DNA of 64,000 nt from a virus (Duplodnaviria > Heunggongvirae > Uroviricota > Caudoviricetes), in the IMG/VR virus record IMGVR_UViG_3300023174_000034; one strand, 5' to 3'. The translations under genes were made by a program, and so were the position numbers. Every line of letters starts with the position of its first letter. The first letter of the stretch is position 1. Shown here one piece after another: positions 8,749 through 52,610 of this stretch. The notes beneath the pieces were generated by a model that was not told the origin of the DNA, did no database searches, and saw only the letters and a list, made by a program, of their open reading frames with translations.

Positions 8749-10941
8749 ATGATCATCAGTAACGCACCAGCCCACGAAGCTGTCCTGTCTAATGTAGGCG
8801 AAATCGGCGAGTTCCGTATCCGCAACTCAGCCAAGGCCTTTAATATTCTTAGCTCTGGCCTTTACGCCAACAAGATCCGTGCCATCGTGCGCGAGCTCTC
8901 TTGCAATGCAGTAGATAGCCATACAGCCGCAGGCCGCCAAGACACACCCTTTGATGTACACTTGCCCAACCAGCTGGACCCTACCTTTAGCATCCGTGAC
9001 TATGGCACTGGCCTGACTCATGCACAGGTGCAGAACATCTACACCACCTACTTTGAGTCAACCAAGACCGAAAGCAATGCGTTCATTGGCGCACTTGGAC
9101 TGGGTAGCAAAAGCCCGTTCAGTTACACAGACAACTTCACTGTGACTGCTATCAAAGATGGTACCCGCGGTGTGTACAGTGCATTCATCAACGGCGAAGG
9201 CGTGCCTAGCATTGTGCTCATGCACTCAGAGCCCACAGATCAGCCTGCAGGTGTTGAGGTTAAATTTGCAGTAAACAGCCGCAATGACTTCCACAAGTTC
9301 GAAGAAGAAGCTCGCTATGTGTACACCTACTTTGCTCTGCGCCCTGTGGTGTCAGGTGGTGACAGCGACTTCCGTTTCCGCGACGTTGACTACAAGGAAA
9401 AGAACATTATCCCGGGTGTGCATTACACTGACAGTCGTTCCAGCCGTGCTGTGATGGGCAATATTTCCTATCCGATCGATGTGCCCAATGCAGAAACCGC
9501 ACTAGGCGATCTCCACAGGCTCTTGGACTGTGGATTGGAAATGCATTTTGACATTGGCGAACTGGACTTCCAGGCCAGCCGCGAAGGCTTGAGCTACATT
9601 CCGCAGACCGTGAATGCTATCCGTGCCAAGCTAGAAGCACTCAACGCTCAGTTGGCTGTTCACGTGCAACTGGAAGCAGACATCATTGCCAATGATTGGG
9701 AAAAAGTTTACTTCTTGCAAAAGAAAGCCAACGAAACCCTGTTCAAGTCAGCGGCTGTGAAGTATGCACAGGATACCAAATTTGATCTGATTGACACTGC
9801 CAACAGCTACTACATGCGTGGTGTGCCACTCAAGTTTGATATCAAAGACTTGGCCAGCAAGTACAACATCGAGATATTGGCTTTCCAAAAGAGCCGTCAC
9901 GGTGCCACTTGCTCTGAGATCAAACCCAGCAAGGTGTATCCAACTGCTACGATTATCGCCGCAACAGATATCAATCAAGTGTGGGAATTTACCATTGACC
10001 CTAGCAACATCTTTGTGGTCAATGATACCCGTATTGGTGCGTTGAGCCGTGCCAAGTATCACTGGCGCAATGCCGAAGCCAAAGGTATCGCTTTGCCAAG
10101 CAAGAGCCATACCAATAATGTGTACGTTTTGAGTCCTGCTACTAAAGGCAAGGTCATGGATACCATTGGCTTCTTTGCTGACATGCGTGACCCTCCTGTG
10201 ATTCAGCGCATGGTAGCCAGCGAGCTCATGCTCAAAGATCGCAAGACTGGCGCCGCAGGCATGGGTGCTAATGTAAGTATCCTGCGCCTGGCTCAACGTG
10301 GCTACGGTGGCTATCACAAAGAGCGTGAACTAGTCTGGAAGGATGCAGGCAAGGCTGATCAATTTGATGACAGCGAAACCTACTACTACCTGCCACTCAG
10401 TGGTTTTACTGTGATATCAAATGGTACGCCTATCACACAAAACATGCGTCACTTCAGTGATCTGGTTACCGAATCAGGCATCCCAGGTTTGCAAGGTATC
10501 AACATTCTTGGTGTGCGTAAAACGGACATTGAGTACATCAAGACTCAATCCAATTGGATCAATGTGCAAGATCACATTCGCACAGTTTTGGCAAAGTTGG
10601 ATCCAAAAGTTGTACAACAATGTGCGTTGAAACAGATTGACACGAACAAGTATTTCCGCTACAATAAGGTTATTGCAAAACTAGTGTCGCCTAACAGTGC
10701 ATATTCAAAGTTTTTGGCTCAGTTCAAATTCGTTGACAATGTTACAGTTAACAAGCACAGTTTGCAAAAATTGTGCTGTGACTATGCAACACCAGTTGAC
10801 GTGGACACGGTTGTCCAGGGCCTTACGGATCAATTGACTGCCATCCGTAATCGCTATCCACTCTTGAGCAGTTTGCGTGACTACGACATCAATGCAGATG
10901 CTGTGGCACAGTACATTAACTTGATTGACAAAGAGGCTTAA
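8749..10941 (+). CDS. rIIA: rIIA membrane-associated protector protein (GHKL/HATPase_c-like N-terminus).
   Basis: 730 aa. ELSCNAVDS...IRDYGTGL...GALGLGSKSPF resemble Bergerat-fold ATPase motifs. Size and position immediately upstream of a clear rIIB. Confidence 0.8.
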   Translation: MIISNAPAHEAVLSNVGEIGEFRIRNSAKAFNILSSGLYANKIRAIVRELSCNAVDSHTAAGRQDTPFDVHLPNQLDPTFSIRDYGTGLTHAQVQNIYTTYFESTKTESNAFIGALGLGSKSPFSYTDNFTVTAIKDGTRGVYSAFINGEGVPSIVLMHSEPTDQPAGVEVKFAVNSRNDFHKFEEEARYVYTYFALRPVVSGGDSDFRFRDVDYKEKNIIPGVHYTDSRSSRAVMGNISYPIDVPNAETALGDLHRLLDCGLEMHFDIGELDFQASREGLSYIPQTVNAIRAKLEALNAQLAVHVQLEADIIANDWEKVYFLQKKANETLFKSAAVKYAQDTKFDLIDTANSYYMRGVPLKFDIKDLASKYNIEILAFQKSRHGATCSEIKPSKVYPTATIIAATDINQVWEFTIDPSNIFVVNDTRIGALSRAKYHWRNAEAKGIALPSKSHTNNVYVLSPATKGKVMDTIGFFADMRDPPVIQRMVASELMLKDRKTGAAGMGANVSILRLAQRGYGGYHKERELVWKDAGKADQFDDSETYYYLPLSGFTVISNGTPITQNMRHFSDLVTESGIPGLQGINILGVRKTDIEYIKTQSNWINVQDHIRTVLAKLDPKVVQQCALKQIDTNKYFRYNKVIAKLVSPNSAYSKFLAQFKFVDNVTVNKHSLQKLCCDYATPVDVDTVVQGLTDQLTAIRNRYPLLSSLRDYDINADAVAQYINLIDKEA

Positions 10942-15442: not shown

Positions 15443-15471
15443 TTGACAACAGGTGCAAATAAATATATACT
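15443..15471 (+). promoter_or_regulatory. Sigma70 promoter (TTGACA-N17-TATACT) for the tmRNA precursor.
   Basis: Near-consensus boxes about 7 nt upstream of the tRNA-like acceptor piece. Confidence 0.55.
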
Positions 15472-15477
15472 GTAGGT

Positions 15478-15543
<66 letters not shown>

Positions 15544-15725
15544 AAGGAAATTTGTGAAAAGTAAGAGTAAGTTCAGTCGTTATAATCTTAAAGGCAATAT
15601 TATGTGGTGCCTAAATTTGCGTAACGGATGGGTAAGAATTTACAACACTATGATTCGTTGGAATACCGATTGGACAACTAATTATAGATACTTTTCAATA
15701 GAACAAATAAAAGTTTCTTTATGAT

Positions 15726-15978
15726 GGGGGTGACCTGGCTTTCGACAGGGCAAAGAGTAAACAAGTGGACAGCACGGTAAGGCAGAAACCGTAGGGTTGG
15801 GGGAACTCGGCCGTAGACGCAAAAAACGTAAATGCAAAAGCAAATACAACATCTGGTGTTAAAGTAACAGTAGGCAAAGGTTTCCGTTTCGGCGGTTCCA
15901 AGTCTGCTCGCACTGAGGCAGCTTTCGCCTAAACAGCGAAACCAGCGGGGTAGGACTTACCTTGTAAAATAAACAACC
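15726..15978 (+). ncRNA. ssrA: tmRNA coding piece: 5' acceptor strand, tag reading frame 15819-15932 and 3' helices.
   Basis: Starts GGGGGUGACCUGGCUUUCGACAGGG (compare E. coli GGGGCUGAUUCUGGAUUCGACGGG). GGGGGUG pairs with CACCUCC of the upstream piece, giving a G3:U70 wobble. Resume context UAGAC-GCA (E. coli UAGUC-GCA). The frame stays open to TAA. Confidence 0.7.
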
Positions 15979-16001
15979 ATGGGCCTCCGGGCCCATTTTT
16001 C
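15979..16001 (+). terminator. Rho-independent terminator (ATGGGCCtccgGGCCCAT + TTTTT) ending the tmRNA precursor.
   Basis: 7-bp stem followed by a T5 run. Confidence 0.65.
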
Positions 16002-16002
16002 T

Positions 16003-16251
16003 ATGCTAGAATATATCTTAACCTTCCTTGCCGTGTTCTTACTGGACGTGGTCTACACATACTATCTGCGATGCGTCAAAGATGGTCGTGTGTTGATGGC
16101 CAGCGGCTGGAGTGTGGCCTGTTACATTGGTGGAAGTGTGGCAGTTATCAATTATACATCGGACCACTGGATGCTGATACCTGCGGCAATAGGCGCCTTT
16201 TGCGGAACCTATGTGGGCATGAAGATCAACGTCGCATCAGTTGATCAGTAA
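16003..16251 (+). CDS. Small membrane protein (about 82 aa).
   Basis: Two predicted TM helices. The ORF track starts at 15979 inside the terminator, so the ATG at 16003 is more plausible. Confidence 0.4.
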   Translation: MLEYILTFLAVFLLDVVYTYYLRCVKDGRVLMASGWSVACYIGGSVAVINYTSDHWMLIPAAIGAFCGTYVGMKINVASVDQ

Positions 16252-20902: not shown

Positions 20903-21367
20903 ATGCCATTAGAAAAATCATCAATCACATTGGAAAACCTTGCCAGTGCCCTGGCCGGTGAAAGCCAAGCACACATCAAGTATCGCTACTTTGCAAAAAT
21001 TGCCAGAGAAGAAGGCCACGAAGAAGTAGCCCAGCACTTTGAGCACACCGCAGATCAAGAACTGTTACATGCCTGGGGACATTTGGAATTGCTAGTTGGC
21101 AAGCCAGATACTCGCAAGTGCCTGGAAATGGCCATTGAAGGTGAGACATATGAGTTCACCACTATGTATCCAGGATTTGAACAGCAGGCACGTGCCGAAA
21201 ACGATCGTACTGCACAGTATGAGTTTCGCAATCAGATTGTTGAAAGCACAGAACATGCTGAACAGTTCAAGTCAGTGCTGGCCAAAGCTGAAAAGCGTTT
21301 TGCCGCACTCAAGCGAGTTGAACAGCGTCATGCCAACGCATACACACAAGTATTGGAGAGTCTATAA
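20903..21367 (+). CDS. Rubrerythrin-like ferritin-fold diiron protein without a fused rubredoxin domain.
   Basis: ExxH-type motifs (GESQAHIKY, ELLHAWGH, EGETYEF, EHAEQF). Confidence 0.6.
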   Translation: MPLEKSSITLENLASALAGESQAHIKYRYFAKIAREEGHEEVAQHFEHTADQELLHAWGHLELLVGKPDTRKCLEMAIEGETYEFTTMYPGFEQQARAENDRTAQYEFRNQIVESTEHAEQFKSVLAKAEKRFAALKRVEQRHANAYTQVLESL

Positions 21368-23547: not shown

Positions 23548-23922
23548 GTGAAAGCATTTTTAGAAACTACTGTGTGGGAAGGTGCCGAAGGCAAAAACTA
23601 CAATCATGTGTACTGGCTGAACAACAGCAAGGAAAAGATGTATGCCTATGCCAAGTTCGGCAACCCAGCAGAAGTTACTACGTTCAAGACTCCGATCCAG
23701 ATTGACACCCGTGGACGCAAGTTTGAAGTGGTACGCAATGACATCTATGGTTGGGTTGATGAGGACGAGGCAGTGATTTCAGCAAACCCAACCTGGACAA
23801 TTACGGGCAGTAAGGGCGACAAGTATGTTGTAGAAAAAGATGGTTCAGTGTATAATTGCACTTGTTCAGGTTTCAAATTCCGCGGTGATTGCCGCCATAT
23901 CCAAGAGGTACAAAATGCTTAA
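23548..23922 (+). CDS. SWIM zinc-finger protein.
   Basis: CTCSGFKFRGDCRHIQ gives a CxC...CxH signature. Apparent GTG start. Confidence 0.5.
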   Translation: MKAFLETTVWEGAEGKNYNHVYWLNNSKEKMYAYAKFGNPAEVTTFKTPIQIDTRGRKFEVVRNDIYGWVDEDEAVISANPTWTITGSKGDKYVVEKDGSVYNCTCSGFKFRGDCRHIQEVQNA

Positions 23923-25222
23923 ACCATGGGAAGTGATTGCAGAGCTGGAAGGTGACAACAGCCGCTTGATCAAAGAAGCAGTGATACGCCGTGAAAGTGA
24001 AAACAGCAACGACGAACTGTTCCGTGGCTTCCGTGCCGCATATGATGCCATGATCACCTTTGGTGTCAAAAAGGTAGAGCCCAAGACAGGCAACGGCAAA
24101 GGACTCAAAGCAGAACGTTTCTGGCGTGTGGCTCAGGAATTGAGTGAGCGCCGATTGACTGGCAATGCCGCACAGACTGAAATCAATGCCATGCGACAAG
24201 ATGCCACACAAGCAGAATGGAACGACTGGTATCGACGCATCCTGATCAAGGACATGCGCTGTGGTACCAGCGACAGCACCATCAACAAACATGCACAAGA
24301 AAAATATCATGTGCCTGTGTTTTCCTGTCAGCTGGCACACGACGGCGCCAATCACGAAAGCAAGGTGTCGGGCGAAAAACTGATTGAAGTCAAGCTGGAT
24401 GGTGTGCGTGTGATTACCATTGTGTATCCAAATGGACAAGTGGATCAGTACAGCCGCAATGGCAAAGAGCTGGCGAACTTTCCGCATGTGAAAGAACAAT
24501 TGAGCAAGCATGCCGCGCTGTTTGCAGAACCCATGGTACTGGATGGTGAGATCATGAGTAGCAGTTTCCAAGACTTAATGAAGCAAGTGCATCGCAAGAG
24601 TGATGTCAAAGCCAATGATGCCATGCTCAACCTGTTTGACATGATCACGCTTCGTGAGTTTCAAGCAGGTGCAGGCACTCAGCGGCAGATTGATCGTAGT
24701 ACTACTCTTAAGGCCTGGTATGACAGCATTGAAGCACACATGCCAGATGTCACTGTGGTAGGACAAGAGCTGGTGGACCTGGGTACTGCAAAAGGTGCCG
24801 CACGTTTTGCAAAGATCAACACAGATGCAGTGGCACATGGCTACGAAGGCATCATGATCAAAGATCCTGAAGCTGTGTACGAAACCAAGCGAAGTGTGGC
24901 CTGGCTCAAGCAAAAGCCCTTTATCGAAGTGAGCTTGACTGTGGTAGGCTTTGAAGAAGGCACAGGCAAGAACGCAGGCCGCCTGGGTGCCTTGATCGTG
25001 GAAGGTGTGGATGACGGCAAGACTATCCGTACCAATGTGGGCTCAGGACTCACTGATGCCTTGCGTGAAGCTATCTGGAGCAGTCAGTCCAAGGTGCTGG
25101 GTAGCGTGGTTGAAGTGCGAGCAGATGCCGCAACACAGAACCAAGACTCGGATGGTGAATGGAGCCTGCGCTTTCCACGATTCAAGGGTTTCCGTGGATT
25201 TGCAGTAGGAGAGAAACTGTGA
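23915..25222 (+). CDS. ATP-dependent DNA ligase.
   Basis: Adenylation motif I KLDG (LIEVKLDGVRVI). Nucleotidyltransferase and OB regions of appropriate length. Confidence 0.75.
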   Translation: MLKPWEVIAELEGDNSRLIKEAVIRRESENSNDELFRGFRAAYDAMITFGVKKVEPKTGNGKGLKAERFWRVAQELSERRLTGNAAQTEINAMRQDATQAEWNDWYRRILIKDMRCGTSDSTINKHAQEKYHVPVFSCQLAHDGANHESKVSGEKLIEVKLDGVRVITIVYPNGQVDQYSRNGKELANFPHVKEQLSKHAALFAEPMVLDGEIMSSSFQDLMKQVHRKSDVKANDAMLNLFDMITLREFQAGAGTQRQIDRSTTLKAWYDSIEAHMPDVTVVGQELVDLGTAKGAARFAKINTDAVAHGYEGIMIKDPEAVYETKRSVAWLKQKPFIEVSLTVVGFEEGTGKNAGRLGALIVEGVDDGKTIRTNVGSGLTDALREAIWSSQSKVLGSVVEVRADAATQNQDSDGEWSLRFPRFKGFRGFAVGEKL

Positions 25223-31607: not shown

Positions 31608-32405
31608 ATGCGTATTTTGACTCTTTCCGTCCTTGCCGCGGCTGTGCTAGCAACAGGTTGTACTCGTATTGAAACTGGTGAAGTTGGTCTCCGTGTGGGT
31701 TTTGACAAGCAGGTCAAAACTGAGGAACTGCTCCCAGGCTCTTTTAATCAAACTATCATTGGTGATGTTATCACATTCCCAACCAAAGAGATCACTGTTA
31801 AAGTTGAAGACATGACTCCACTGGCCAAGGATAACAGCACAATGAAAGACTTTGATGCTATGATCACATACAACATCAATCAAGCACAAGTGGCTGAGAT
31901 CTACAACAGCAAGAACAAAAGTTTCCATGCCAAACACGATGGCGATGTTTACTTGATGTACAACTATGTGTTCAATGCCACACGCAATGCCATCTACAAG
32001 AGTGCTCGCAAGTTCGAAGCATTGGAAATGGGCGATGCTCGTCAAGCAATGGAAACTGAAATCAAAGAGCAAGTGATCAAGACCCTAGCAGAGGAAAAGC
32101 TAGACGGTACTATCATTATCAGCCAAGTGTTGATTCGTAACATTGTGCCTGCTGACAGTGTGGTGCTGAGTGCCAACGAATTGGTCAAGGCCAAGAACGA
32201 GTACAAGACTGAAGAAGTCAAAGTAGCCACTGCTCGCAAGCGCAACGAGTCCATGCAGGCCAACCCAATGGCAATTCCATTGCTCAAAGCCGAAGCTGAA
32301 GCAGACGCCATGCGAGCCTTGCCAAATGCCATCGCGGCCTTCAAAGGGCAGACCCTGGTGATCAATGGTGTGGTGACTCCAACTGTACAAACTAATAGCA
32401 AATAA
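31608..32405 (+). CDS. SPFH/band-7 (prohibitin/HflKC-like) lipoprotein.
   Basis: Lipobox LATGC after a signal peptide. IETGEVGLRVGF resembles the SPFH N-terminal strand. Confidence 0.55.
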   Translation: MRILTLSVLAAAVLATGCTRIETGEVGLRVGFDKQVKTEELLPGSFNQTIIGDVITFPTKEITVKVEDMTPLAKDNSTMKDFDAMITYNINQAQVAEIYNSKNKSFHAKHDGDVYLMYNYVFNATRNAIYKSARKFEALEMGDARQAMETEIKEQVIKTLAEEKLDGTIIISQVLIRNIVPADSVVLSANELVKAKNEYKTEEVKVATARKRNESMQANPMAIPLLKAEAEADAMRALPNAIAAFKGQTLVINGVVTPTVQTNSK

Positions 32406-39690: not shown

Positions 39691-40635
39691 ATGATACACT
39701 GGGGGATCAACGCACTCAATCACGGCACTAGCCTGGCTGTGATCAAAGACAGCAGACTGGTACAGTTTGATTACTCACCAGCTGAACATGCTTTTGACGA
39801 ACTGAAACGACAGGCCTTGGATCATGGCGCACCAGATGTCATGTACTGGTACGAACGTCCTTGGATCAAAAAAGCACGACAACTACGTGCCGGGCAGTAC
39901 AGCGCGGCCATGGACATGAGCGTGTTGCCCAGTCAGTGGCTCAAACAACACAGACTTGGCTATGCCGGCCTGCGCTACACGCCACATCATGCTAGCCATG
40001 CCGCGGCAGGTTACTATACTAGTCCTTTCAATCACTGTGCCATTGTTGTGCTTGATGCCATTGGCGAGTTTGAATGTGCAACCATCTGGGAAGGCCTGCA
40101 TGGAGAAATGCGTAAGGTCTGGAGTGCCAGCTATCCGCACAGTCTAGGCTTGTTCTACAGCGCATTTACAAAACTGCTAGGGCTAGAGCCTATCAAGCAA
40201 GAACACATCTTGCAACAGATGTCTGCACAAGGCGACCCTGAACGTTTTTATCATGCGGTCAAACGCTACATAGACTTCACAGTTGACCTTAAGTATAATC
40301 TACATGCAGGTGTTCCAGACTGGCCACATGAGATCGAATCAGTCCAGGATGAATCGGACCTGGCGGCGGCTGTGCAACGAGTGTTTGAAGAACAGGTGTC
40401 AGCAGTGATGCTGAAAGCACGGCAACTGATAAACAGTGATTGTCTAGTGTACATGGGTGGCTGTGCCATGAACAGCCAGGCAAACGAATACGAAGTCAAG
40501 GCTTGGAAGTATGTGTGGTCGTTGCCTAACCCAGGCGACCCTAGCAGTGCAATTGGTGCTGTGCTGTATCACACCAAAGAAAGAATATGGAATTGGCAAT
40601 GGGATCCAGTAAAGCACATACAGATCAAGGTTTAG
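39691..40635 (+). CDS. Carbamoyltransferase N-terminal (NodU/CmcH, Kae1/ASKHA-like) domain protein lacking the C-terminal domain.
   Basis: HHASHAAAGYYTSPF, IVVLDAIGE, GGCAMNS and NPGDPSSAIGA match Carbam_trans_N blocks. Confidence 0.5.
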   Translation: MIHWGINALNHGTSLAVIKDSRLVQFDYSPAEHAFDELKRQALDHGAPDVMYWYERPWIKKARQLRAGQYSAAMDMSVLPSQWLKQHRLGYAGLRYTPHHASHAAAGYYTSPFNHCAIVVLDAIGEFECATIWEGLHGEMRKVWSASYPHSLGLFYSAFTKLLGLEPIKQEHILQQMSAQGDPERFYHAVKRYIDFTVDLKYNLHAGVPDWPHEIESVQDESDLAAAVQRVFEEQVSAVMLKARQLINSDCLVYMGGCAMNSQANEYEVKAWKYVWSLPNPGDPSSAIGAVLYHTKERIWNWQWDPVKHIQIKV

Positions 40636-42449: not shown

Positions 42450-42645
42450 AGTGCATACATTGTGGTTCAGGCCAGGGCTACAACGAACAGTACGATGCCT
42501 ACTACTGTGCTCCCTGCAATGCATGGATGGAAGAACCATGCACTGATCCAGATTGTGAATTCTGTGCTAATCGCCCGGAAAAGCCTGTGGTTGACAACAA
42601 AACCCAGAATAATGTATAATTAAACATAAACATTGAGGATTCTGA

Positions 42646-43324: not shown

Positions 43325-43924
43325 TATAGGCAATCCCTGGAGCGACACATGCAGATGGGTTGTACTTTGGAACAAAAGTGGTTTGTTTACCAAGCATAAG
43401 GCTTGGGAATTTAATGGTTACCAGACAAGTCGGGTGGTTGATATAGAATTTGATTTAAGACTCAGAGGTGATCATGCAGGCGCTAGAATCATGTTAGGGT
43501 TGTTTGGCCATGAAGTTGAACTACACATCTACGATGTTCGGCACTGGAATCACGATACCAACACCTGGGCAACTCATGATTGAAATTTTTATACCTGTGT
43601 TGTTTATCTGTGTGGGTAACAACTGCGAGTTCATGCAGGCACAGGCTCACTATATGTCAGACGCACAATGCAGATCCAGTTTGGACATGCAAAAGAAACA
43701 CATGCGAGATCTGATCAAACAAGCAGGACAAGAAGTCAAAAGCATGGAAGGTACCTGTATACAGGCAACTGTCAATGCTAGATCAAAAACGGAAAAAGAT
43801 ATATGATCGAATTTTGGCATGCTGTTGAATGGTTTGCGTACGGTGCGATTGTGGGATATTTTGCACACCCTGTTTGGCAACTGTTGACAAGAATTGTCGA
43901 AGAAGCTAAAATAGCTAAAACTGA

Positions 43925-44317
43925 GTGGAGAAACCCCAAATGACCATGCACCTTGTACACCCTAGCTTGAGTCTTACTGGCAAAAAGCGTGGTAAGAAAA
44001 AGTTTGCATCAGCGGCTCATGCGTCCAAAGCACGTGAGCTTGATGCAGACTGGGCGGCACTCATGGTCAAATGGGGCCCTGGCAAGGTCGCACCTGCTCC
44101 AAAGAAACAAAAACTTGAATACAAACTAGAGATTCCCGAAGGGCGTAGCACACGACACATTCCCAGTAGAGACACTGGTGGTAATGCTGTACTGGCACCT
44201 GCCAAGGTCTATACAGGAACCATGGTAAAAGGCATTGCCACCATGCACAAGTCAAATGCGGTGCCTGTGTTTTCGGACCAAGAAGCAATTGACATAAGTA
44301 AAATGCGCCGTGGATAA
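43925..44317 (+). CDS. Hypothetical basic protein.
   Basis: 130-aa ORF. Confidence 0.4.
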   Translation: MEKPQMTMHLVHPSLSLTGKKRGKKKFASAAHASKARELDADWAALMVKWGPGKVAPAPKKQKLEYKLEIPEGRSTRHIPSRDTGGNAVLAPAKVYTGTMVKGIATMHKSNAVPVFSDQEAIDISKMRRG

Positions 44318-44345
44318 CGGCTAATATATAGGAGATCATGCCCCT

Positions 44346-44567
44346 GTGGCCAAAGAAGAATTTGTTAACATGACTGGTATTGTGGAAGAAGTACTTCCCA
44401 ATGCCACGTTCCGAGTTGTGCTAAAAGACACACAACACAAGATTATTGCATACCTTGGCGGCAAACTGCGCCAAAACAACATCAAAGTGCTCATGGGAGA
44501 TACCGTAGAGCTTGAAATGAGTCCATACGATTTAAGTCGTGGGCGCATTACGTATCGCAATAAATAG
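44346..44567 (+). CDS. infA: Translation initiation factor IF-1.
   Basis: VAKEEFVNMTGIVEEVLPNATFRVVLKDTQHKIIAYLGGKLRQNNIKVLMGDTVELEMSPYDLSRGRITYRNK aligns along its whole length with E. coli IF1 ([69 protein letters not shown]). GTG start after AGGAG. Confidence 0.8.
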   Translation: MAKEEFVNMTGIVEEVLPNATFRVVLKDTQHKIIAYLGGKLRQNNIKVLMGDTVELEMSPYDLSRGRITYRNK

Positions 44568-45137
44568 TTGATGCAAGACCTACGTCAACTCGTTACCCTG
44601 GTAGAATCTGTCAAAGACGATCGTCGTCTAGAACAAACAGAACTGCCTTATGGGAAAAAAGACCTATACCCGGCCATAAGCGAAGACACTATCAACTATC
44701 ACTATGGCAAGCTCTACAAGGGCTATGTTGACCGTTACAACAAAGGCGAAGGCGATCCTGACTTTAACGAAGCAGGCGCCTTCTTACACGACCTGTACTT
44801 TACTCAGCTACAGGAAGTAGGCGGAGCAAATAAACCAGATGGTGCCAGCGAAGCATTGATCAACAGACGCTTTGGCAGTTTCGACAAGTTCAAGGATCAG
44901 CTTGCTGAAGAAGCCATGAAGATACAAGGCTCTGGGTGGATCTACTTGAGTCGTTCAGGCGACATCAAAACAATTAAAAATCATGAAATTAAAAAGGACA
45001 TTGCTCTGCTGATAGACTGGTGGGAGCATGCCTGGGCATTAGATTACCAAGCCGATAAGGCCAAGTACTTGAAAAACTTTTGGCGCATTATCAATTGGGA
45101 AGTTATCAATCGAAGAATTTACGGCGGAGCAAAATGA
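44568..45137 (+). CDS. Fe/Mn superoxide dismutase-like protein (divergent).
   Basis: N-terminal [29 protein letters not shown] resembles LPYAYDALEPHIS...HHxKHHxxYV. C-terminal [34 protein letters not shown] resembles [28 protein letters not shown]. Metal ligands appear retained (His in HYGK, FLHD, D/H in DWWEH). The HHxKHH block is degenerate. Confidence 0.6.
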
Positions 45138-45466
45138 CATATATTGTAGACGGTGCTTGCATCAAGTGCAAGTACCAGGACTGCGTGGTAGTCTGCCCTG
45201 TTGACTGTTTCAAAGAAGGACCAGAGTTCTTGATCATCAACCCAGACGAATGTATTGACTGTGGCGTGTGCGAACCCGAATGTCCAGCAGGTGCTATACA
45301 TCCTGATACTTACATGACTCCAGATCTGGAATATTGGGCCCGGATCAACGTTGACCTAAATAAAACATACCAACCTATCACTCGCAAAGGAGCTGTGCCA
45401 GCAGATGCTGATCATTGGAATCCCAAGTTAAATACAAGTGTAGGTAACAAAAAGGATCTATTATGA
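45134..45466 (+). CDS. fdxA: 7Fe (3Fe-4S + 4Fe-4S) ferredoxin of the Azotobacter FdxA type.
   Basis: [54 protein letters not shown] is almost motif-for-motif FdxA. ATGA overlap with the previous gene. Confidence 0.8.
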
Positions 45467-45786
45467 TCAGTCTAAAGCCCAGTGCTGTTGAAAAAATACG
45501 TGACCTAATTGCAGAAGAAAATAATCCTGATCTAAAACTACGCATATTTGTGCAAGGTGGCGGTTGTTCAGGTTTCAGTTACGGCTTTACATTTGACGAA
45601 ATGGTCAATGAAGATGACTTTGATCTAGACTTCCAAGGTGTGCATTTACTTGTAGACAGCATGAGTAACCAGTATCTAGACGGCGCAGAAGTGGATTATG
45701 TAGAAGAACTCATGGGATCTCAGTTCAAGATAAACAACCCAAATGCTGCCACGAGTTGTGGTTGTGGCAGTAGTTTCAGCGTCTAA
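45463..45786 (+). CDS. IscA/ErpA/HesB-type A-type Fe-S cluster carrier.
   Basis: [12 protein letters not shown]...[16 protein letters not shown] (Cys-x(n)-CGCG signature). Confidence 0.8.
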
Positions 45787-45842: not shown

Positions 45843-48800
45843 ATGTCTCAGCAAATAATCAATATTGGTACTAGTGCAGGCGCAGGTGACGGAGACGAAC
45901 TTCGTCAAGCGTTTGATAAAGTAAACGAAAATTTCACAGAAATTTACAGTGGTAACGTTGCCGCTGGAAATTTACTTGTAACGTCTGTGGCTGGCCGCCA
46001 AGGTGCTGTTGAGCTGACCTGGCTTGATATTGCAGGTGTTGCGAACCAGGGCAATGTTACCCAATTAAAACAGTACATTACGTCCAATCTGGCGGCGTCT
46101 TATGCCTACACTGATACTGCAATCAACAACTTGGCAAGTGTCAACAATATAACTGTTGCAGGTGGTACATTATCCAATGTAAACATCACCGGTAACAGTA
46201 CAGGTACATTCACCACTGTTTCAGTAACAAGCACACTGACAGCAAATGCTTTAATCATTGGTACTGGTGGGCTTTCGCTTCCAAATGGTAACTTTGTTCT
46301 AGCAAACGGTAGTTTAGTAGCAAACACCATTGTGTTTGGCGATGCTACCACAATGACCACAACACCAAACTTTGCGCCAACCAACACAGCTATTGCTGGC
46401 CTACGTGCCAACATTACTGCGGCCAATGCCAGTGTTGTGGCGGCCAATCTAAGAGTTGATGCAGCCAATGCCAGCATTACCACTGCAACCAATCGTATTT
46501 CAACACTTGAGGCAAATGCTACCACTCAAGCACTAAGCATCATTACATTGACCTCTGCCAACAGTATCCAGTCTGGGCAAATCAATACTCTGTCTGCCAA
46601 TGCAGGAACACAGGCAGGACAGATCATTGCGCTACGTGCCAATATCACTGCGGCCAATGCACAAATTGACAGCAACTATGCAAGCCTGACATCCAACGCC
46701 AGCACACAGCAAACACAGATCAATGTGTTGCAAAGCAACGTTGTGTCGCTCAATGCGGCAGTGGCCAGTATCAATGCAGGCAACGGTTTGACCTCAGCCA
46801 ATACTGAAATTGACAAACTACGTGCCAACCTTACTGCGGCAAATACTGCAATCAGTACCCTGTCGTCTGTGACCACAGGCAATGCTGTTGCACAAGCGCA
46901 GGCCATCGGAGTGTTACAAACCAATGCAGTCACACAACATTTTCAAATTACCAGCTTGCAGGCCAATGTCGCTGCCGCTAATGTTTTAATTGCTGCCGCC
47001 AATCTAACTGTTGCCAACATACAGATATCAGAACTTCGTGCCAACATCATTGCAGCCAACACAGCCATTGCGGCTGTTACTGTGGCCTGGACTGCCAATG
47101 CAGGAACACAAGCAGGTCTAATAACCGGCTTGACATCCAATGCGGCATCCCAGTCTGTGGCACTCACAGCACTGGTTGCCAATGACGTTGCCCAGCACAC
47201 TTCCATTACTAGCCTACGTGCCAATATTGCGGCAGCTAATGCGGCTATTGCGGCCATTCCAAATGTCAACTCATTGCCAGGCGCAAATATCATTGGACAA
47301 GTTGCCAACTCTGTTGTGTCTGGCACAGTATACAATCCTATACAATCAAACATCACTCGAGTTGGCAATCTGACTGCACTGACAGTTGATGGCAATGCTC
47401 AAATTGACAACCTAACTGCCAGTGCTATCTTTGGACCAGTACGAACACCAGCACAACCATATATCACCAGCGTCGGAAACTTGACTGCCTTGACAGTGAT
47501 CGGAAACGTCACCACAGGTAATGTGAGCGGAGCCAAAGGTACATTTACCAACATTCAAGGCACACTATTAACTCCGGTCCAGACCAACATTACCAATGTT
47601 GGCACCTTGACTGCTCTAACCGTTGCAGGTAATCTAGATGCCGGTAATGTTGTTACTGGTAACGTTTCTGCCAGTCGTATGACTGCCGGCAACATAGTCG
47701 GTACCATACTAACACCAAGCCAAACCAACATTACTCGTGTGGGCACACTCAGCAACTTGGCTGTGACTGCCAACACTGTGGTTGGTAACCTGATAGCAAC
47801 TGGTACTGTCAGTGGAGCAAATTTAACCGGTACACTAAACACAGCCGCACAAACAAACATTACCGCAGTAGGAACACTGGCTAATTTAACAGTTGCTGGC
47901 ACTGTCACAGCAGGTAATATTTCGACCACGGCCGATTTGTGGCTAGGAAATATTTACCCTACCAGGGTCAATGCTCCGATCATTGACTCAGCTGACATCC
48001 GTGGTAACTTAACCACTGCCGCGCAACCATACATCACCAGTGTTGGTACATTGACCAGCCTGACTGTGTCTGGTACCACAACCCTTGCTAATGCAACGCT
48101 GACTGGCACACTAACAGTTAAAGAAGTTGTTGCCAATCTAACAGCACATAACATTTCAGTTTACTCTAATGTATTGGTTGGAAACCTTAACGCTAGTTTC
48201 ATTAGATCCAACGGCAACATACAGACTGGCAATATACTAGTAACTGGAAATATTGTTTCAACCGGTGCATTTGGTGTTGTGCATGCCACAACTGGTGACT
48301 TTGCTAACGTATTTGGAACAGTCAAAACCAATGCACAGCCATTCATTACTAGTGTAGGTACACTGTCAGCATTGACAGTTGATGGCCCTGTTAACATCAC
48401 TGGTAGCCAATTTGTTGCACAAGACTTTTATGTAACAGGCAACTTGTTTGTTAATGGCAACACAACAACTGTGAGTGCTGGCAACGTCACAACCAGCGAC
48501 AAAGACCTAACACTGGCCAATGGTGCAGTGAACTCAACAGCCGCACGTGGCGCCGGACTGTTAATTGGTCAAGGCGGTGCATACGGTAATCTAACCATTT
48601 ATGATGGTGTATGGACCACACCAAACGCATTTGCCATTGCAGGCAATGTTTCGACAGGTAATGTAAGTGGTACCAAAGGCACATTTACCACTGTGGGCGG
48701 CACATTACAAACTGCAAGCCAACCTAATATCACCACAGTTGGCACATTGGGCAATCTGGCAGTTGGCGGAAATATCACAGGTACCATTGCAACAGGCAAC

Positions 48801-51800
48801 CAACCATTCATCACAAACGTGGGTACACTGGGTAACATTACTATTACTGGTACTGCACGAGTTGGTAGTTTGGAATTGCTAGGCGGCGCTGGATCTACTC
48901 TAAACATCGACAACTTATATTTGACAGCCAATGCCTCTGTTGCAAACATCAACGTGAGTGGCACTGCCAATTTGGGCCGTATCAGTGGAACACTGATTAC
49001 CAATGCCCAGCCAAATATTAACAGTGTTGGTACATTGGCTTCATTGACAGTGACTGGTGCTGTTACCACAGCAAACATCACAGCAAATGGTGCAGTGATC
49101 CGAGACCTAAACGTAACCAATGCCAACCTAAGTGTTCTAAGAGTTTCTGGTAATGTTACCACAGGCAACGTGAGTGGCACAACTGGTACGTTCACAAACA
49201 TCTCAGCTGGTTTTGCCAGCTTGACTGGCAATATCAATGTTGCCGCAGTTAATGCAACAAACGGAACATTTGTTGAAATGCAAGGTCGTGTGCTGACAAA
49301 TGCACAACCATACATTACCAGCGTTGGTACACTGACAGCATTGTCTGTGACTGGCAACGTTACTACAGGTAACGTAAGTGGTACAACAGGTGCGTTCACC
49401 AATGTAACTGGTACCCTACAAACTGCAAGTCAAACCAATATCACAGCAGTTGGCACACTAGGAGCACTGGCAGTCACAGGCAACGTTACTACAGGTAACG
49501 TGAGTGGTACAACTGGTGCATTCACCAATGTAACAGGTACCCTACAAACTGCAAGTCAAACCAATATCACAGCAGTTGGCACACTAGGCAACTTAACTGT
49601 TACTGGTACAACCACAGCGGCAAATATTTCTGCCAATGGTGTAACAGTCAAAGATCTAAATGCAACCTATGCCAACATTGGCGCAACTGCTAGTATTACA
49701 GGCAATGTCACAACAGGCAATGTAAGTGGTACAACTGGTGCATTCACCAATGTAACAGGTACGCTAAGAACCAATGCACAACCGCATATTACCAGTGTGG
49801 GTACACTAGGTAATTTAACTGTTACTGGTAATATCAGCGGCAACGTAGTGGCCACACTGATCTATGGTGGTATACTAACAGCATCATCGCAACCAAACAT
49901 CACAGTAGTCGGTACATTGGTGTCGTTGGGTGTGACAGGCAATGTCACAACAGGCAATGTAAGTGGTACAACTGGTGCATTCACCAATGTAACAGGTACG
50001 CTAAGAACCAATGCACAACCCTTTATTACCAGTACCGGCACTCTAACAACATTAGCTGTTACAGGTAATGCAAGCACAGGCAACGTAAGTGGCACTACTG
50101 CTACATTTACTGAAGTGCAAGGCACGGTGTTAACCAATGCTCAACCTTACATTACCAGTGTTGGTACTTTAACATCATTATCTGTCACAGGCAACGTCAG
50201 CGCAGCCGATGTAAATGCCACAGCTACACACACCACTGGTAACTCTGTATCATCAAACACGCAAGTGACTGGAACCGCGCAGGTTGCCAACTTGACTGTA
50301 ACTGGTAATACTGCTCTCACAAACAATGTCAATGCTTTGAGTAGCATAAACATCACCAACCAATTGGTTGTGTTGGGCGCCAACGTCAATGCAATAAATG
50401 CCAACGTGCAAGCAAGCTCGGCACTGATTACAAATGTATTTGTTGGCACCATGAGAGCCAGTAGCACTACAGAAGCCGAATCATCAGTTACTGGCGCAAT
50501 CGTAACTCCTGGTGGTATTAGTGCTTCCAAGCAAATCTACTCCGGTGGTAACTTGATTGCAGACGGTAACGTTATTTCTGGTGGTAATATTATTGCTCTC
50601 ACCAACGTTAGAGTTGGTGGCGACATGTACTTCTTTGGTACACAACCATCTGTGGACTTTATCAGCAACAGAGCAAACGTGTCAATGTTTGATAGTAGCG
50701 TTACAACTATCAGTATTGGCGGTGAAGCAACAACTGTAAACATTGGTGCAATTTCTGGATTTGGTAATACCACGATCCGTAATGACCTGACACTAAAAGG
50801 TGGTTTGTTTCCAGAAGGTGGATTTGGTCTACCTGGACTTGGCAATGTTATTGTCAACAATGACCTGAATGTTGCTGCCAGCATTTATGCTCCTTACATC
50901 ACTGTTGGTGCTCGTACTATCACAGGCAACGGTTTTGCCAATGCACGTACCACAGCAACCAATATCAACAGCGGTGCGCTACAAGTACGTGGCGGCACTG
51001 GTATCAGTGGTAACCTAGTGGTTGGTGCTCCAAGCAACAGCAACAGCACAGTCTACATCAACAGCATTGCTACAACAACAAGCAGTAGTACAGGTGCGTT
51101 ACAAGTCACAGGCGGTATTGCTACCAAAGGTAACTTGTGGGTGGAAGGCGAAGCAACCATCGTTGGTAACGTGAACTTTACAGCGTTTTTGGCAGCATCC
51201 ATCAACGGTACACCAATTGGTAACGCAACACCAAGCACTGGTGTGTTTACTGCAATAGCCACATCCAATAGTACCCCAAGCATTCGTCCAAGTATCAACT
51301 TTGACTTTGCAAACAATCCAAACTTGCCACAGAGCATTACCTACTCACGCACAGGACCAGCAACGTACTACGATGTTCGTGGTAACTTACGTGTAGCACC
51401 TGCATATGCTCCTCGCTTTACCCATGACCCATCAACAGGTGTTTGCTTGGGATTGATGATTGAAGAAACTCGTCAAAACTTGTATCGTGAGTCCAACAGC
51501 TTTGCTAACACTGCTGTGTATGCAACAACCAATGCAACTGTGTCGGTTGTGTCAAGTGCAACACCCAGCCCAGACGGCAACTACAATGCCTACAAACTAG
51601 TCGACAATGCCACACTCAACATCCACGGCATTGCACAACAAGCACCATACTCTCCAACTGTATCACTTGGTGCTATCTACACAGCCAGCGCCTTTGCCAA
51701 GGCAGGTGAAAAAGATCAAGTGTCGTTGATCTTCCAAGGCGAAGGCGATCCAACTATATTTGACTTGACCAACGGCGTGGTTGATCACGAAGGTACAGGA

Positions 51801-52610
51801 GCACCAGCACATAGAAGTACCATTGAACTGCAAGCCAACGGTTGGTACAGAATTTCTAGTACAGTGACCAAAACCAATACTGACGGTACAGTGACACTGG
51901 CATTGGCTGATGGTGGACTTGTCACTTACACAGGTACAGGCACTGCTGGTGCTTATGTATACGGTCTCCAGCTGGAACCTGGTGGTTTTGCAACCAGCTA
52001 TGTTCCAAACACAACTGTTGCCAACACCCGTGGCACAGATACTGTTACTATTACTTCAGCTGAATTTACTCGCAAGTATGTGTCATCCCAGACCAGTGTC
52101 ATGGTTGATGCACGTTTGAACTATCGTCCGACTACACTGACTGGTGTACAACGTTCAACATTGGTCAGCTTCAATGACGGCACAGTCAACAATCGCGTGA
52201 GCATTGTGGCAGAAAATAAAACTTCAAGCCCAGTAGCACGTTTTGCTAATTTGGTAATTTACTCAAGTGGTGTATTGCAAAGCAACGTCTCGTTGAACAG
52301 CAATATTTCAGTACCTGTTGCCAACTTGACTTCAAGTGCATTGCGTGGGTATGTATCAACCAGTGAAGTTGGCAAGGTGGCAGCATACTTTAGCCGCACT
52401 GGCCTAATTGGTCGTGCTTACAACAACGTAGGCAACGTTTATGCCAGCTCTGGCAACGTCAGCCAATCAATCACGCAAATACAAATTGGTGCCGGTCCGG
52501 GCACCAGCGTACTGAATGGCACAATTTCTAAATTGCAAATCTTCTCAGCTGTGGTAACTGGTAACGAATTGCAAACACTAACACGGGTTCGAGCCGAAGG
52601 GGCAACATAA
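45843..52610 (+). CDS. Giant tail-fibre protein (2255 aa) built of beta-helix-like repeats.
   Basis: N-terminus QIINIGTSAGAGDGDELRQAFDKVNENFTEIY. Dozens of units of about 30-35 aa (TGNVSGTTGAFTNVTGTLQTASQTNITAVGTLGxLxVTGN). Confidence 0.7.
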   Translation: MSQQIINIGTSAGAGDGDELRQAFDKVNENFTEIYSGNVAAGNLLVTSVAGRQGAVELTWLDIAGVANQGNVTQLKQYITSNLAASYAYTDTAINNLASVNNITVAGGTLSNVNITGNSTGTFTTVSVTSTLTANALIIGTGGLSLPNGNFVLANGSLVANTIVFGDATTMTTTPNFAPTNTAIAGLRANITAANASVVAANLRVDAANASITTATNRISTLEANATTQALSIITLTSANSIQSGQINTLSANAGTQAGQIIALRANITAANAQIDSNYASLTSNASTQQTQINVLQSNVVSLNAAVASINAGNGLTSANTEIDKLRANLTAANTAISTLSSVTTGNAVAQAQAIGVLQTNAVTQHFQITSLQANVAAANVLIAAANLTVANIQISELRANIIAANTAIAAVTVAWTANAGTQAGLITGLTSNAASQSVALTALVANDVAQHTSITSLRANIAAANAAIAAIPNVNSLPGANIIGQVANSVVSGTVYNPIQSNITRVGNLTALTVDGNAQIDNLTASAIFGPVRTPAQPYITSVGNLTALTVIGNVTTGNVSGAKGTFTNIQGTLLTPVQTNITNVGTLTALTVAGNLDAGNVVTGNVSASRMTAGNIVGTILTPSQTNITRVGTLSNLAVTANTVVGNLIATGTVSGANLTGTLNTAAQTNITAVGTLANLTVAGTVTAGNISTTADLWLGNIYPTRVNAPIIDSADIRGNLTTAAQPYITSVGTLTSLTVSGTTTLANATLTGTLTVKEVVANLTAHNISVYSNVLVGNLNASFIRSNGNIQTGNILVTGNIVSTGAFGVVHATTGDFANVFGTVKTNAQPFITSVGTLSALTVDGPVNITGSQFVAQDFYVTGNLFVNGNTTTVSAGNVTTSDKDLTLANGAVNSTAARGAGLLIGQGGAYGNLTIYDGVWTTPNAFAIAGNVSTGNVSGTKGTFTTVGGTLQTASQPNITTVGTLGNLAVGGNITGTIATGNQPFITNVGTLGNITITGTARVGSLELLGGAGSTLNIDNLYLTANASVANINVSGTANLGRISGTLITNAQPNINSVGTLASLTVTGAVTTANITANGAVIRDLNVTNANLSVLRVSGNVTTGNVSGTTGTFTNISAGFASLTGNINVAAVNATNGTFVEMQGRVLTNAQPYITSVGTLTALSVTGNVTTGNVSGTTGAFTNVTGTLQTASQTNITAVGTLGALAVTGNVTTGNVSGTTGAFTNVTGTLQTASQTNITAVGTLGNLTVTGTTTAANISANGVTVKDLNATYANIGATASITGNVTTGNVSGTTGAFTNVTGTLRTNAQPHITSVGTLGNLTVTGNISGNVVATLIYGGILTASSQPNITVVGTLVSLGVTGNVTTGNVSGTTGAFTNVTGTLRTNAQPFITSTGTLTTLAVTGNASTGNVSGTTATFTEVQGTVLTNAQPYITSVGTLTSLSVTGNVSAADVNATATHTTGNSVSSNTQVTGTAQVANLTVTGNTALTNNVNALSSINITNQLVVLGANVNAINANVQASSALITNVFVGTMRASSTTEAESSVTGAIVTPGGISASKQIYSGGNLIADGNVISGGNIIALTNVRVGGDMYFFGTQPSVDFISNRANVSMFDSSVTTISIGGEATTVNIGAISGFGNTTIRNDLTLKGGLFPEGGFGLPGLGNVIVNNDLNVAASIYAPYITVGARTITGNGFANARTTATNINSGALQVRGGTGISGNLVVGAPSNSNSTVYINSIATTTSSSTGALQVTGGIATKGNLWVEGEATIVGNVNFTAFLAASINGTPIGNATPSTGVFTAIATSNSTPSIRPSINFDFANNPNLPQSITYSRTGPATYYDVRGNLRVAPAYAPRFTHDPSTGVCLGLMIEETRQNLYRESNSFANTAVYATTNATVSVVSSATPSPDGNYNAYKLVDNATLNIHGIAQQAPYSPTVSLGAIYTASAFAKAGEKDQVSLIFQGEGDPTIFDLTNGVVDHEGTGAPAHRSTIELQANGWYRISSTVTKTNTDGTVTLALADGGLVTYTGTGTAGAYVYGLQLEPGGFATSYVPNTTVANTRGTDTVTITSAEFTRKYVSSQTSVMVDARLNYRPTTLTGVQRSTLVSFNDGTVNNRVSIVAENKTSSPVARFANLVIYSSGVLQSNVSLNSNISVPVANLTSSALRGYVSTSEVGKVAAYFSRTGLIGRAYNNVGNVYASSGNVSQSITQIQIGAGPGTSVLNGTISKLQIFSAVVTGNELQTLTRVRAEGAT
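49361..49600 (+). repeat. Near-identical tandem coding repeat of about 120 nt inside the giant fibre gene.
   Basis: aacgttactacaggtaacgt(a/g)agtggtacaac(a/t)ggtgc(g/a)ttcaccaatgtaac(t/a)ggtaccctacaaactgcaagtcaaaccaatatcacagcagttggcacactagg occurs twice in tandem. A further near-identical pair lies at about 49690-49780 and about 49930-50020. Confidence 0.7.

Follow-up and report, generated by a model that had tools for sequence, protein, structure and literature searches.

What would a large phage gain from carrying a translation factor and three redox-related proteins directly upstream of its tail-fiber gene? The question is raised by positions 44346-45786 of the window analyzed here, which is a stretch of 64,000 nucleotides (nt) from a Caudoviricetes virus (IMG/VR record IMGVR_UViG_3300023174_000034). 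Four co-oriented plus-strand open reading frames (ORFs) lie there, and they encode IF-1, a compact Fe/Mn superoxide dismutase (SOD), an FdxA-type 7Fe ferredoxin, and an ErpA-type iron-sulfur (Fe-S) carrier. Our comparison of related viral loci shows that SOD and ErpA form an old core, around which IF-1, FdxA, and the scaffold protein IscU have been exchanged between lineages. Based on this genomic context, we postulate that the locus is a resident island for Fe-S supply and defense against oxidative stress, with IF-1 as a co-expressed passenger, a reading that we consider moderately probable.

Identity and coupling of the four genes

The four genes, in their order along the plus strand, are the following.

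44346..44567, + strand: infA, translation initiation factor IF-1; 73 amino acids (aa), GTG start, with AGGAGA at 44330-44335, 10 nt upstream
44571..45137, + strand: compact Fe/Mn superoxide dismutase (SodFM) variant; 188 aa from the ATG (the mechanically called ORF begins at TTG 44568)
45134..45466, + strand: fdxA, Azotobacter-type 7Fe ([3Fe-4S][4Fe-4S]) ferredoxin; 110 aa, its ATG overlapping the SOD stop
45463..45786, + strand: erpA, ErpA-type (ATC-I) member of the A-type Fe-S carriers; 107 aa, start codon (ATG) overlapping the fdxA stop

The genes are packed closely. A 3-nt spacer separates the IF-1 stop from the SOD ATG, both the SOD/fdxA and the fdxA/erpA junctions are ATGA overlaps, and the fiber gene begins 56 nt 3' of erpA. 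Since the SOD is called with 188 aa in all relatives, its true start is likely the ATG at 44571, and fdxA starts at the ATG at 45134, not at the TTG at 45080. A pattern scan for terminator-like sites on the plus strand found none between 44317 and 52689. The locus therefore has a shared strand, minimal or overlapping junctions, and no internal terminator, as in an operon, and the four genes are translationally coupled and are predicted to form a single transcription unit. Each product retains the residues that are required in its family.

With regard to the individual products, IF-1 matches TIGR00008 (infA; 92.3 bits versus a cutoff of 61.15, over residues 3-71) and PF01176 (75.6 bits versus 30.2). 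Its translation shows an LPNxxFRV loop, a GKxRxNxI[KR] block, and a PYDLSxGRI block, which were compared with E. coli IF-1. The ORF at 44346..44567 is a member of the IF-1 family, with a predicted role at the 30S A site and in the stimulation of initiation. FdxA displays the full 7Fe cysteine pattern (C9, C12, C17, and C21-P, then C40, C43, C46, and C50-P), in which C9/C17/C50 and C21/C40/C43/C46 presumably form the two cluster groups, by analogy with Azotobacter FdI. It matches DUF3470 (26.8 versus 23.2) as well as Fer4, and it scores 133.6 bits with FdxA_Protbact (NF045490; cutoff of 135) over residues 1-98 of 104. The carrier matches NF010147 (ErpA; 167.3 bits versus 117) and PF01521 (75 bits), whereas it stays below the cutoffs for IscA (88.8 versus 150.6) and SufA (83.9 versus 136.2); these equivalog scores identify it as ErpA-type rather than IscA or SufA. 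Its cluster cysteines are all present (C35 in GGGCSGF, C99 and C101 in SCGCGSSF). The initial annotation, made from the letters of the sequence, had described four tightly coupled genes upstream of a fiber module and had named a bona fide IF-1, an Azotobacter-type 7Fe ferredoxin, and an A-type carrier; all of this is borne out, except that the label "IscA" attached to the carrier has to give way to ErpA.

The second gene had been described as a divergent Fe/Mn-SOD-like protein that retains its metal ligands in spite of a degenerate histidine block, and both parts of that description are accurate. By profile and by fold, the ORF remains a member of the SOD family. More specifically, it matches Sod_Fe_C (87.8 versus 20.9) and, over profile positions 5-41 of 82 only, Sod_Fe_N (40 versus 27), and a profile search against PDB reached 1e-36. 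The AlphaFold2 model (predicted local distance difference test [pLDDT] score of 86.3, predicted template modeling score [pTM] of 0.83), in which the N-terminal 17-20 residues are disordered, yielded more than 250 Foldseek matches to solved Fe/Mn-SODs, with TM scores of ~0.76-0.83 and archaeal tetrameric Fe-SODs as the best. The two-domain SOD fold is thus recovered by the model, by Foldseek, and by the PDB profile search. Across 26 members of the family, there is no variation at the four metal ligands (three His, H45, H74, and H154, plus D150), nor at Y53 (Tyr34), W124 (the Trp of GSGW), N138, H139, and E153 (the bridging Glu). When the homologs from PA5oct and the Vibrio phage are aligned together with three reference SODs, all four ligands as well as Tyr34 line up. 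The invariant N138-H139 pair aligns with the N-Q of E. coli and human MnSOD, and H139 falls at the MnSOD Gln146/143 position, while the FeSOD Gln69 position is occupied by Ala. The HxxxHH block, by comparison, reads H45-Y-G-K-L49-Y50, with L49 invariant in the phage family; Leu and Tyr stand at the positions of His30 and His31, and both distal His are gone. In addition, the interface Tyr163/166 is replaced by A157, and a hairpin of ~26 residues is deleted between the two N-terminal helices.

These changes raise the possibility that the fold has been repurposed, with the metal site kept for structure or sensing and the dismutase function gone. Such a protein could be a structural or regulatory partner, as are the FeSOD-derived PAP4/PAP9 of the plastid RNA polymerase, and the PDB matches indeed include PAP4/FSD3 subunits of the plastid polymerase. 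The loss of His30, His31, and the cross-subunit Tyr, the deletion, and the disordered N-terminal extension fit this view, as do the NCBIfam scores (92.5 versus 348 for SodB and 53.2 versus 363 for SodA), which are so far below the cutoffs that the protein is not an ortholog of the standard bacterial SodA or SodB. Homologs in PA5oct-like and Vibrio jumbo phages, moreover, sit amid genes for ClpS, ClpX, IbpB, and FtsH, or for IF-3, S21, and ClpS-like proteins. Nevertheless, the ligands, Tyr34, the GSGW Trp, the bridging Glu, and the water-coordinating His remain invariant out to homologs that are only 36-40% identical. Human MnSOD mutants with a substitution at His30 retain activity. PDB holds such mutants that were studied for catalysis (entry 1luw). 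In the SodFM classification, SodFM3 and SodFM4 carry a second-sphere His in the C-terminal domain, and SodFM4, members of which have been tested for SOD activity, has as its hallmark a missing distal His in HxxxHH (Sendra et al. 2023, PMC10172142). Real as it is, the degenerate block gives no cause for alarm, given that SodFM3/4 show the same kind of second sphere, and we consider repurposing quite improbable. The protein is best described as a compact, jumbo-phage-specific enzyme that resembles SodFM3/4 at the level of motifs and is probably active. Its family comprises 3937 proteins at E <= 1e-5, the best 120 of which are 179-213 aa long, some of them encoded on contigs of up to 360 kb.

Conservation and modularity of the island

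Close cellular families exist for all four genes, and the nearest cellular FdxA is 58-67% identical, so host contamination or a chimeric assembly would be one way to explain the cluster. The evidence for phage DNA is, however, extensive. Other samples yielded three contigs that match the window with >=99.99% identity along 2-17.7 kb, and the exact 188-aa SOD protein, in the identical gene arrangement, is present on 15 independent public contigs from several independent samples. A sister lineage with ~90% DNA identity retains all four genes, and related lineages maintain the cluster at 57-87% identity. The GC content of the window is uniform (~0.45; 0.453), that of the four genes is 0.41-0.45, and their GC content at third codon positions (GC3) is also in line with the window. 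Pairwise dN/dS values of 0 to 0.22 for the four genes (0.08-0.09 for fdxA and 0.05-0.08 for erpA) indicate purifying selection. Finally, the window carries rIIA, virion protein, and tail protein genes, and phage genes border the cluster on both sides. Because of these independent assemblies, the sister lineage, the matching composition, and the selection on the genes, contamination and mis-assembly, which had been named earlier as a concern should the genes be absent from relatives, are so improbable that we treat them as excluded. The genome (~350-375 kb) belongs to a freshwater jumbo phage that has not been cultured, and its rIIA gene and clamp loader mark it as T4-like. A megablast search of the region against 50,697 phage records returned no match; hence, no close relative has its sequence among the deposited phage records.

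To place the island in a wider context, 245 related viral loci were gathered with SOD, FdxA, and IF-1 probes, and their gene order was scored by tblastn. The commonest order, found at 66 of the 245 loci, is SOD-gap-ErpA-fiber. The pairing of SOD and ErpA persists to ~50-60% identity and across more than 100 loci, and ErpA adjoins the fiber gene in most relatives. What lies between SOD and ErpA varies: the two genes are joined directly at 15 loci, the slot holds FdxA at 6 and IscU at 3 (L008, L073, and L272), and at 47 loci it spans ~340 nt with a Zn-ribbon ORF on the minus strand. FdxA occupies this locus only in the lineage of the window (L084-87, L168, and L408-412), although at least 598 viral stretches encode FdxA in general. 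IscU adjoins ErpA at 26 loci, and two of these IscU genes contain an intein. Of the 80 loci that carry IF-1, 69 have SOD or ErpA no more than 4 kb away from it, in one of two layouts. Layout A, which is that of the window, runs from the gene for a 130-aa protein through IF-1, SOD, FdxA (where present), and ErpA to the fiber gene; in the second, SOD and IscU (either of which may be missing) precede ErpA, followed after ~1.6 kb by IF-1 and after a further ~1 kb by the fiber gene. These slot contents and layouts across the 245 loci are the reason for regarding SOD and ErpA as the old core and IF-1, IscU, and FdxA as its exchangeable part.

Some of the slot genes deserve a separate description. 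The Zn-ribbon-like ORF at L044 6542-6829 (minus strand) encodes 95 aa with two CxxC pairs and has no Pfam match. At L040 853-1644, the slot is filled by an ADP-ribosyltransferase (PF03496, E 6e-15). In L073 5823-7235 and L273 341-1720, IscU (NifU_N) is split by a Hint/intein module and stands between a compact SOD and an A-type carrier.

Such variety could also mean that the island is a moron or insertion hot spot upstream of the fiber gene, where host-like genes have been captured independently, each useful or neutral by itself and without a common pathway. Indeed, the slot has at least six different contents, including the ADP-ribosyltransferase and unknown ORFs, IF-1 occurs in two positions relative to ErpA, and FdxA is located elsewhere in related genomes. 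The SOD gene itself points to local recombination. Between the window and the sister lineage with ~90% identity (L084, 10001-10567), SOD has 87% aa identity and a dS of 0.50, while the flanking IF-1, FdxA, and ErpA have 97-100% aa identity and dS values of 0.06-0.21 (100% and 0.064 for IF-1), which suggests a recombination patch or allele exchange limited to the SOD gene. Against a mere hot spot, three of the alternative slot contents or neighbors are Fe-S proteins (IscU, FdxA, and ErpA), an enrichment for one theme that is stronger than chance accretion would give. In addition, the SOD-ErpA pair has endured over the divergence described above, and the adjacency of ferredoxin and A-type carrier (ATC) genes recurs in unrelated viral contigs. 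We therefore rate a hot spot without a shared function as rather unlikely. Our main argument for a shared Fe-S theme is that three different Fe-S proteins recur in the company of one SOD.

Possible function and candidate clients

How might such an island work during infection? ATC-I carriers have been proposed to pass clusters to apo-targets (Vinella et al., PMC2682760). In the scheme that we favor, i.e., Fe-S supply coupled to protection from reactive oxygen species, the compact SodFM would remove superoxide that is otherwise destructive to solvent-exposed [4Fe-4S] clusters. ErpA would receive clusters from the host ISC/SUF machinery (or from the phage IscU in sister lineages) and insert them into apo-proteins. 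The 7Fe FdxA would be both a client of ErpA and a low-potential one-electron donor, for which two candidate acceptors can be named: a rubrerythrin-like peroxidase, which would dispose of the H2O2 made by SOD, and a SPASM/twitch-like radical S-adenosylmethionine (SAM) enzyme encoded beside the clamp loader. IF-1 would be a functionally separate addition that tops up the small initiation factor for translation of phage mRNA.

The genes for these acceptors lie outside the island. Independent assemblies that are >=99.99% identical extend the genome beyond both window ends, and the relevant features are as follows.

20903..21367, + strand: rubredoxin-less rubrerythrin (sulerythrin-like di-iron protein); PF02915, 3.7e-16; PDB rubrerythrin/sulerythrin, ~E 1e-20
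L414 23083-24201, in a 99.99% identical genome, ~6.2 kb past the window end and ~24 kb 3' of the island: radical-SAM protein, 372 aa
L413 1924-3024 and 6962-7585, ~3-8 kb upstream of the window start: SAM synthetase, ClpP, SprT-like protease, and UvdE endonuclease

The rubrerythrin-like gene has relatives in 270 IMG/VR viral stretches, with >=72% identity among the best 80. It shares the theme of peroxide and iron, is physically unlinked to the island, and encodes a possible peroxide-reducing partner of the SOD. The radical-SAM protein shows CNLDCTYC (CxxxCxxC) and a Cys-rich, SPASM/twitch-like C-terminus, and its gene follows that of an RFC-like clamp loader with overlapping codons. Relatives occur on 61 viral contigs, 41 of which have the gene adjoining the clamp loader, and two of them, on large contigs, also carry IF-1 and SOD. 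The protein has no sequence relative in PDB, and its NCBIfam matches are weak and below threshold. Radical-SAM enzymes are oxygen-sensitive, and they depend on SAM, on a low-potential source of electrons, and on a [4Fe-4S] cluster. The phage has possible counterparts to these needs in ErpA, in a SAM synthetase (~8 kb upstream of the window), in FdxA, and in the SOD, which makes the radical-SAM enzyme a coherent candidate client for both clusters and ferredoxin electrons.

It is tempting to go further and to view SOD, FdxA or IscU, and ErpA, together with SAM synthetase, as a self-contained system for the maturation, reduction, and protection of the phage's oxygen-sensitive radical-SAM enzyme, an idea that we put forward as distinctly doubtful. 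If it were true, an aerobic freshwater host could run phage-specific radical chemistry, e.g., nucleotide or DNA hypermodification, and the compact phage SodFM would represent a lineage of SODs that is specific to viruses and has no place in the present scheme of five subfamilies.

Several observations weigh against Fe-S supply and oxidative-stress defense as the common purpose of the island. Pfam searches of ~50 ORFs and a Cys-motif scan found no Fe-S client other than FdxA within the 64-kb window, and FdxA stands beside the radical-SAM gene at 0 of 61 loci. FdxA is missing from the island in most relatives and resides in a replication/nucleotide module in L183 and L236 (~356 kb); its link with SOD and ErpA is therefore not obligate. 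We know of no tie between IF-1 and Fe-S metabolism. The slot that also takes an ADP-ribosyltransferase, a Zn-ribbon ORF, and unknown ORFs resembles a simple insertion hot spot. Given the loss of His30, His31, the interface Tyr, and ~26 residues, together with its low SodA and SodB scores, the SOD could have a low catalytic rate or a changed role.

Taken together, the observation made in the initial annotation is confirmed, and its interpretation is partly supported. The proposal that the phage maintains Fe-S or redox homeostasis with SOD, ferredoxin, and carrier is supported, at the level of genomic context, by the conserved SOD-ErpA pair, the slot filled by FdxA or IscU, and the rubrerythrin-like gene. 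The suggestion that the ferredoxin serves a phage enzyme elsewhere gains a conserved candidate in the radical-SAM protein, which is encoded outside the window but in the same genome.

FdxA was also seen in other settings. In L183 3048-4749 and L236 3090-5699, it is translationally coupled between the clamp loader and a dCMP deaminase or DHFR-ThyA, these neighbors having been identified from their N-terminal sequences only. In L239, it is ~3 kb from a QueE-like radical-SAM gene.

The island is flanked by the features below, to which a transfer-messenger RNA (tmRNA) far upstream is added.

15481-15932, + strand: permuted (two-piece type) tmRNA; Rfam RF04321, 96.6 bits versus a gathering score of 47
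43884..43912, + strand: sigma-70-like promoter match, TTGACA-17-TAAAAT, 11/12, just 5' of the gene for the 130-aa protein; a pattern match only
43925..44317, + strand: small, conserved basic protein; 130 aa with the GTG start, 125 aa with the start called in relatives (ATG 43940)
45843..52610, + strand: giant repeat-rich tail/fiber protein, 2255 aa; assigned by synteny and by phrog_5939 (tail protein, E 6.7e-55)

The promoter match at 43884..43912 is a possible start of the transcription unit, in a region where the total of promoter-like matches is no higher than the shuffled expectation. A 12/12 sigma-70 consensus (TTGACA-18-TATAAT) lies at 42591-42620 (plus strand), 5' of the run of small genes that leads into the island. 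The 130-aa protein, which is invariably encoded directly 5' of IF-1 in layout-A relatives, matches phrog_27048 (E 3.8e-27) and has 7937 homologs, none with a Pfam domain. Searches of Pfam, NCBIfam, and PDB sequences gave no match for it, and its AlphaFold2 model is poor (pLDDT of 61, pTM of 0.27). Its C-terminal half is common to Delftia phage PhiW-14 and Acidovorax phage ACP17. At the other end of the island, the PHROG match of the 2255-aa tail protein covers its C-terminus; the fiber gene is a conserved downstream neighbor that, as far as our data show, is functionally outside the island.

A phage infA had been called uncommon, which is true of the deposited phage records (36 matches among 50,697, several of them host contamination) and untrue of this clade, in which 82 IMG/VR relatives carry IF-1. 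The tmRNA that had been noted in the same genome is present and of the permuted type, and the remodeling of translation that had been suggested for it and IF-1 jointly is a conjecture. ARAGORN places it at 15450-16023 with a tag peptide of 32 aa, which is unusually long and may be mis-predicted. This type of tmRNA is characteristic of Alphaproteobacteria, along with several other groups. Its presence accords with the nearest cellular FdxA homologs, which are mostly from Alphaproteobacteria in a sample biased by a pattern pre-filter; FdxA hints weakly at the host, which is possibly an alphaproteobacterium.

Other genes in the window, all on the plus strand, encode a RIIA-like protein (8749-10941, E 9e-129), an AMP-forming acyl-CoA ligase-like enzyme (6682-8064), an ATP-dependent DNA ligase (23840-25222), an SPFH/Band-7 protein (31608-32405), and a protein with a carbamoyltransferase N-terminal domain (39691-40635).

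Relation to known systems

Each of these gene types is individually known already. IF-1, IF-3, and tmRNA have been reported in huge phages (Al-Shayeb et al. 2020, PMC7162821). Huge phages, Lak megaphages, and Sinorhizobium phage Phosso share with the window a phage IF-1 and a tmRNA elsewhere in the genome. However, their IF-1 is 48-56% identical to that of the window, and it is in the clade of the window that IF-1 is physically tied to a SOD/ErpA island.

The compact SOD has relatives in Pseudomonas phages PA5oct, Callisto, and MIJ3 (Wroclawvirus, annotated "sodB") and Vibrio phage 2.275.O, at 36-40% identity. They have in common a length of ~175-190 aa, the ligands, the H-x-x-x-L-Y block, the C-terminal His, the hairpin deletion, and a location among host-like housekeeping or stress genes, whereas ErpA, FdxA, and IF-1 are not adjacent in those phages. 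A search of the literature at hand for a characterized phage Fe/Mn-SOD or a study of the PA5oct SOD found nothing relevant. With SodFM3 and SodFM4, the phage SOD shares the water-coordinating C-terminal His in place of Gln, the loss of a distal HxxxHH His, and the archaeal tetrameric Fe-SODs that are its best structural matches; it differs in lacking both distal His and in its ~26-residue deletion between the N-terminal helices. The SodFM sampling of Sendra et al. 2023 (PMC10172142) included no viruses, and the compact phage-specific Fe/Mn-SOD lineage to which our data point, common to PA5oct-like and Vibrio jumbo phages, was thus outside the sample on which the current SOD classification is built.

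In the bacterial isc operon (iscRSUA-hscBA-fdx), a scaffold, an A-type carrier, and a ferredoxin are likewise co-located and co-oriented, the scaffold being represented by IscU in sister lineages of our phage. The phage island, in contrast, has no cysteine desulfurase, HscBA, or IscR, its ferredoxin is a 7Fe FdxA instead of a [2Fe-2S] Fdx, its carrier belongs to ATC-I (ErpA), and SOD and IF-1 have been added. In bacteria, ATC-I (ErpA) genes are normally found away from ISC/SUF genes (PMC2682760).

The closest parallel comes from viral metagenomes. A-type carriers and IscU have been described, sometimes alongside viral radical-SAM genes, in environmental viral genomes (Nishimura 2017, PMC5332604), in marine viromes (Sharon 2011, as cited in PMC5332604), and in PMC8940887, and a Lake Baikal virus carries a ferredoxin together with an Fe-S assembly gene (PMC7678222). 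The authors of PMC5332604 and PMC7678222 read the combination of a viral carrier or IscU with Fe-S clients as cluster supply during infection. The island fits this pattern, in that a phage A-type carrier, an IscU, or both accompany phage Fe-S clients such as radical-SAM enzymes. It departs from it in that the carrier is ErpA-type and is fixed beside a compact SOD and a tail-fiber gene in a freshwater jumbo clade, in that the place of the partner is taken by FdxA or, alternatively, by IscU, and in that IF-1 is linked.

The value of the locus thus lies in its organization and in the hypothesis that it suggests, not in a new principle. As far as we could establish, what is new is a conserved modular island with a fixed place 5' of the fiber gene and the recognition of a compact phage SodFM lineage. 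If our reading is correct, the island would offer a concrete and testable model for the way in which a large phage might maintain oxygen-sensitive cofactors even as it destroys its host. Viromes have yielded phage Fe-S assembly genes for more than 10 years, mostly scattered singly; here, they belong to a conserved modular island in an abundant, uncultured freshwater clade with genomes of ~350 kb.

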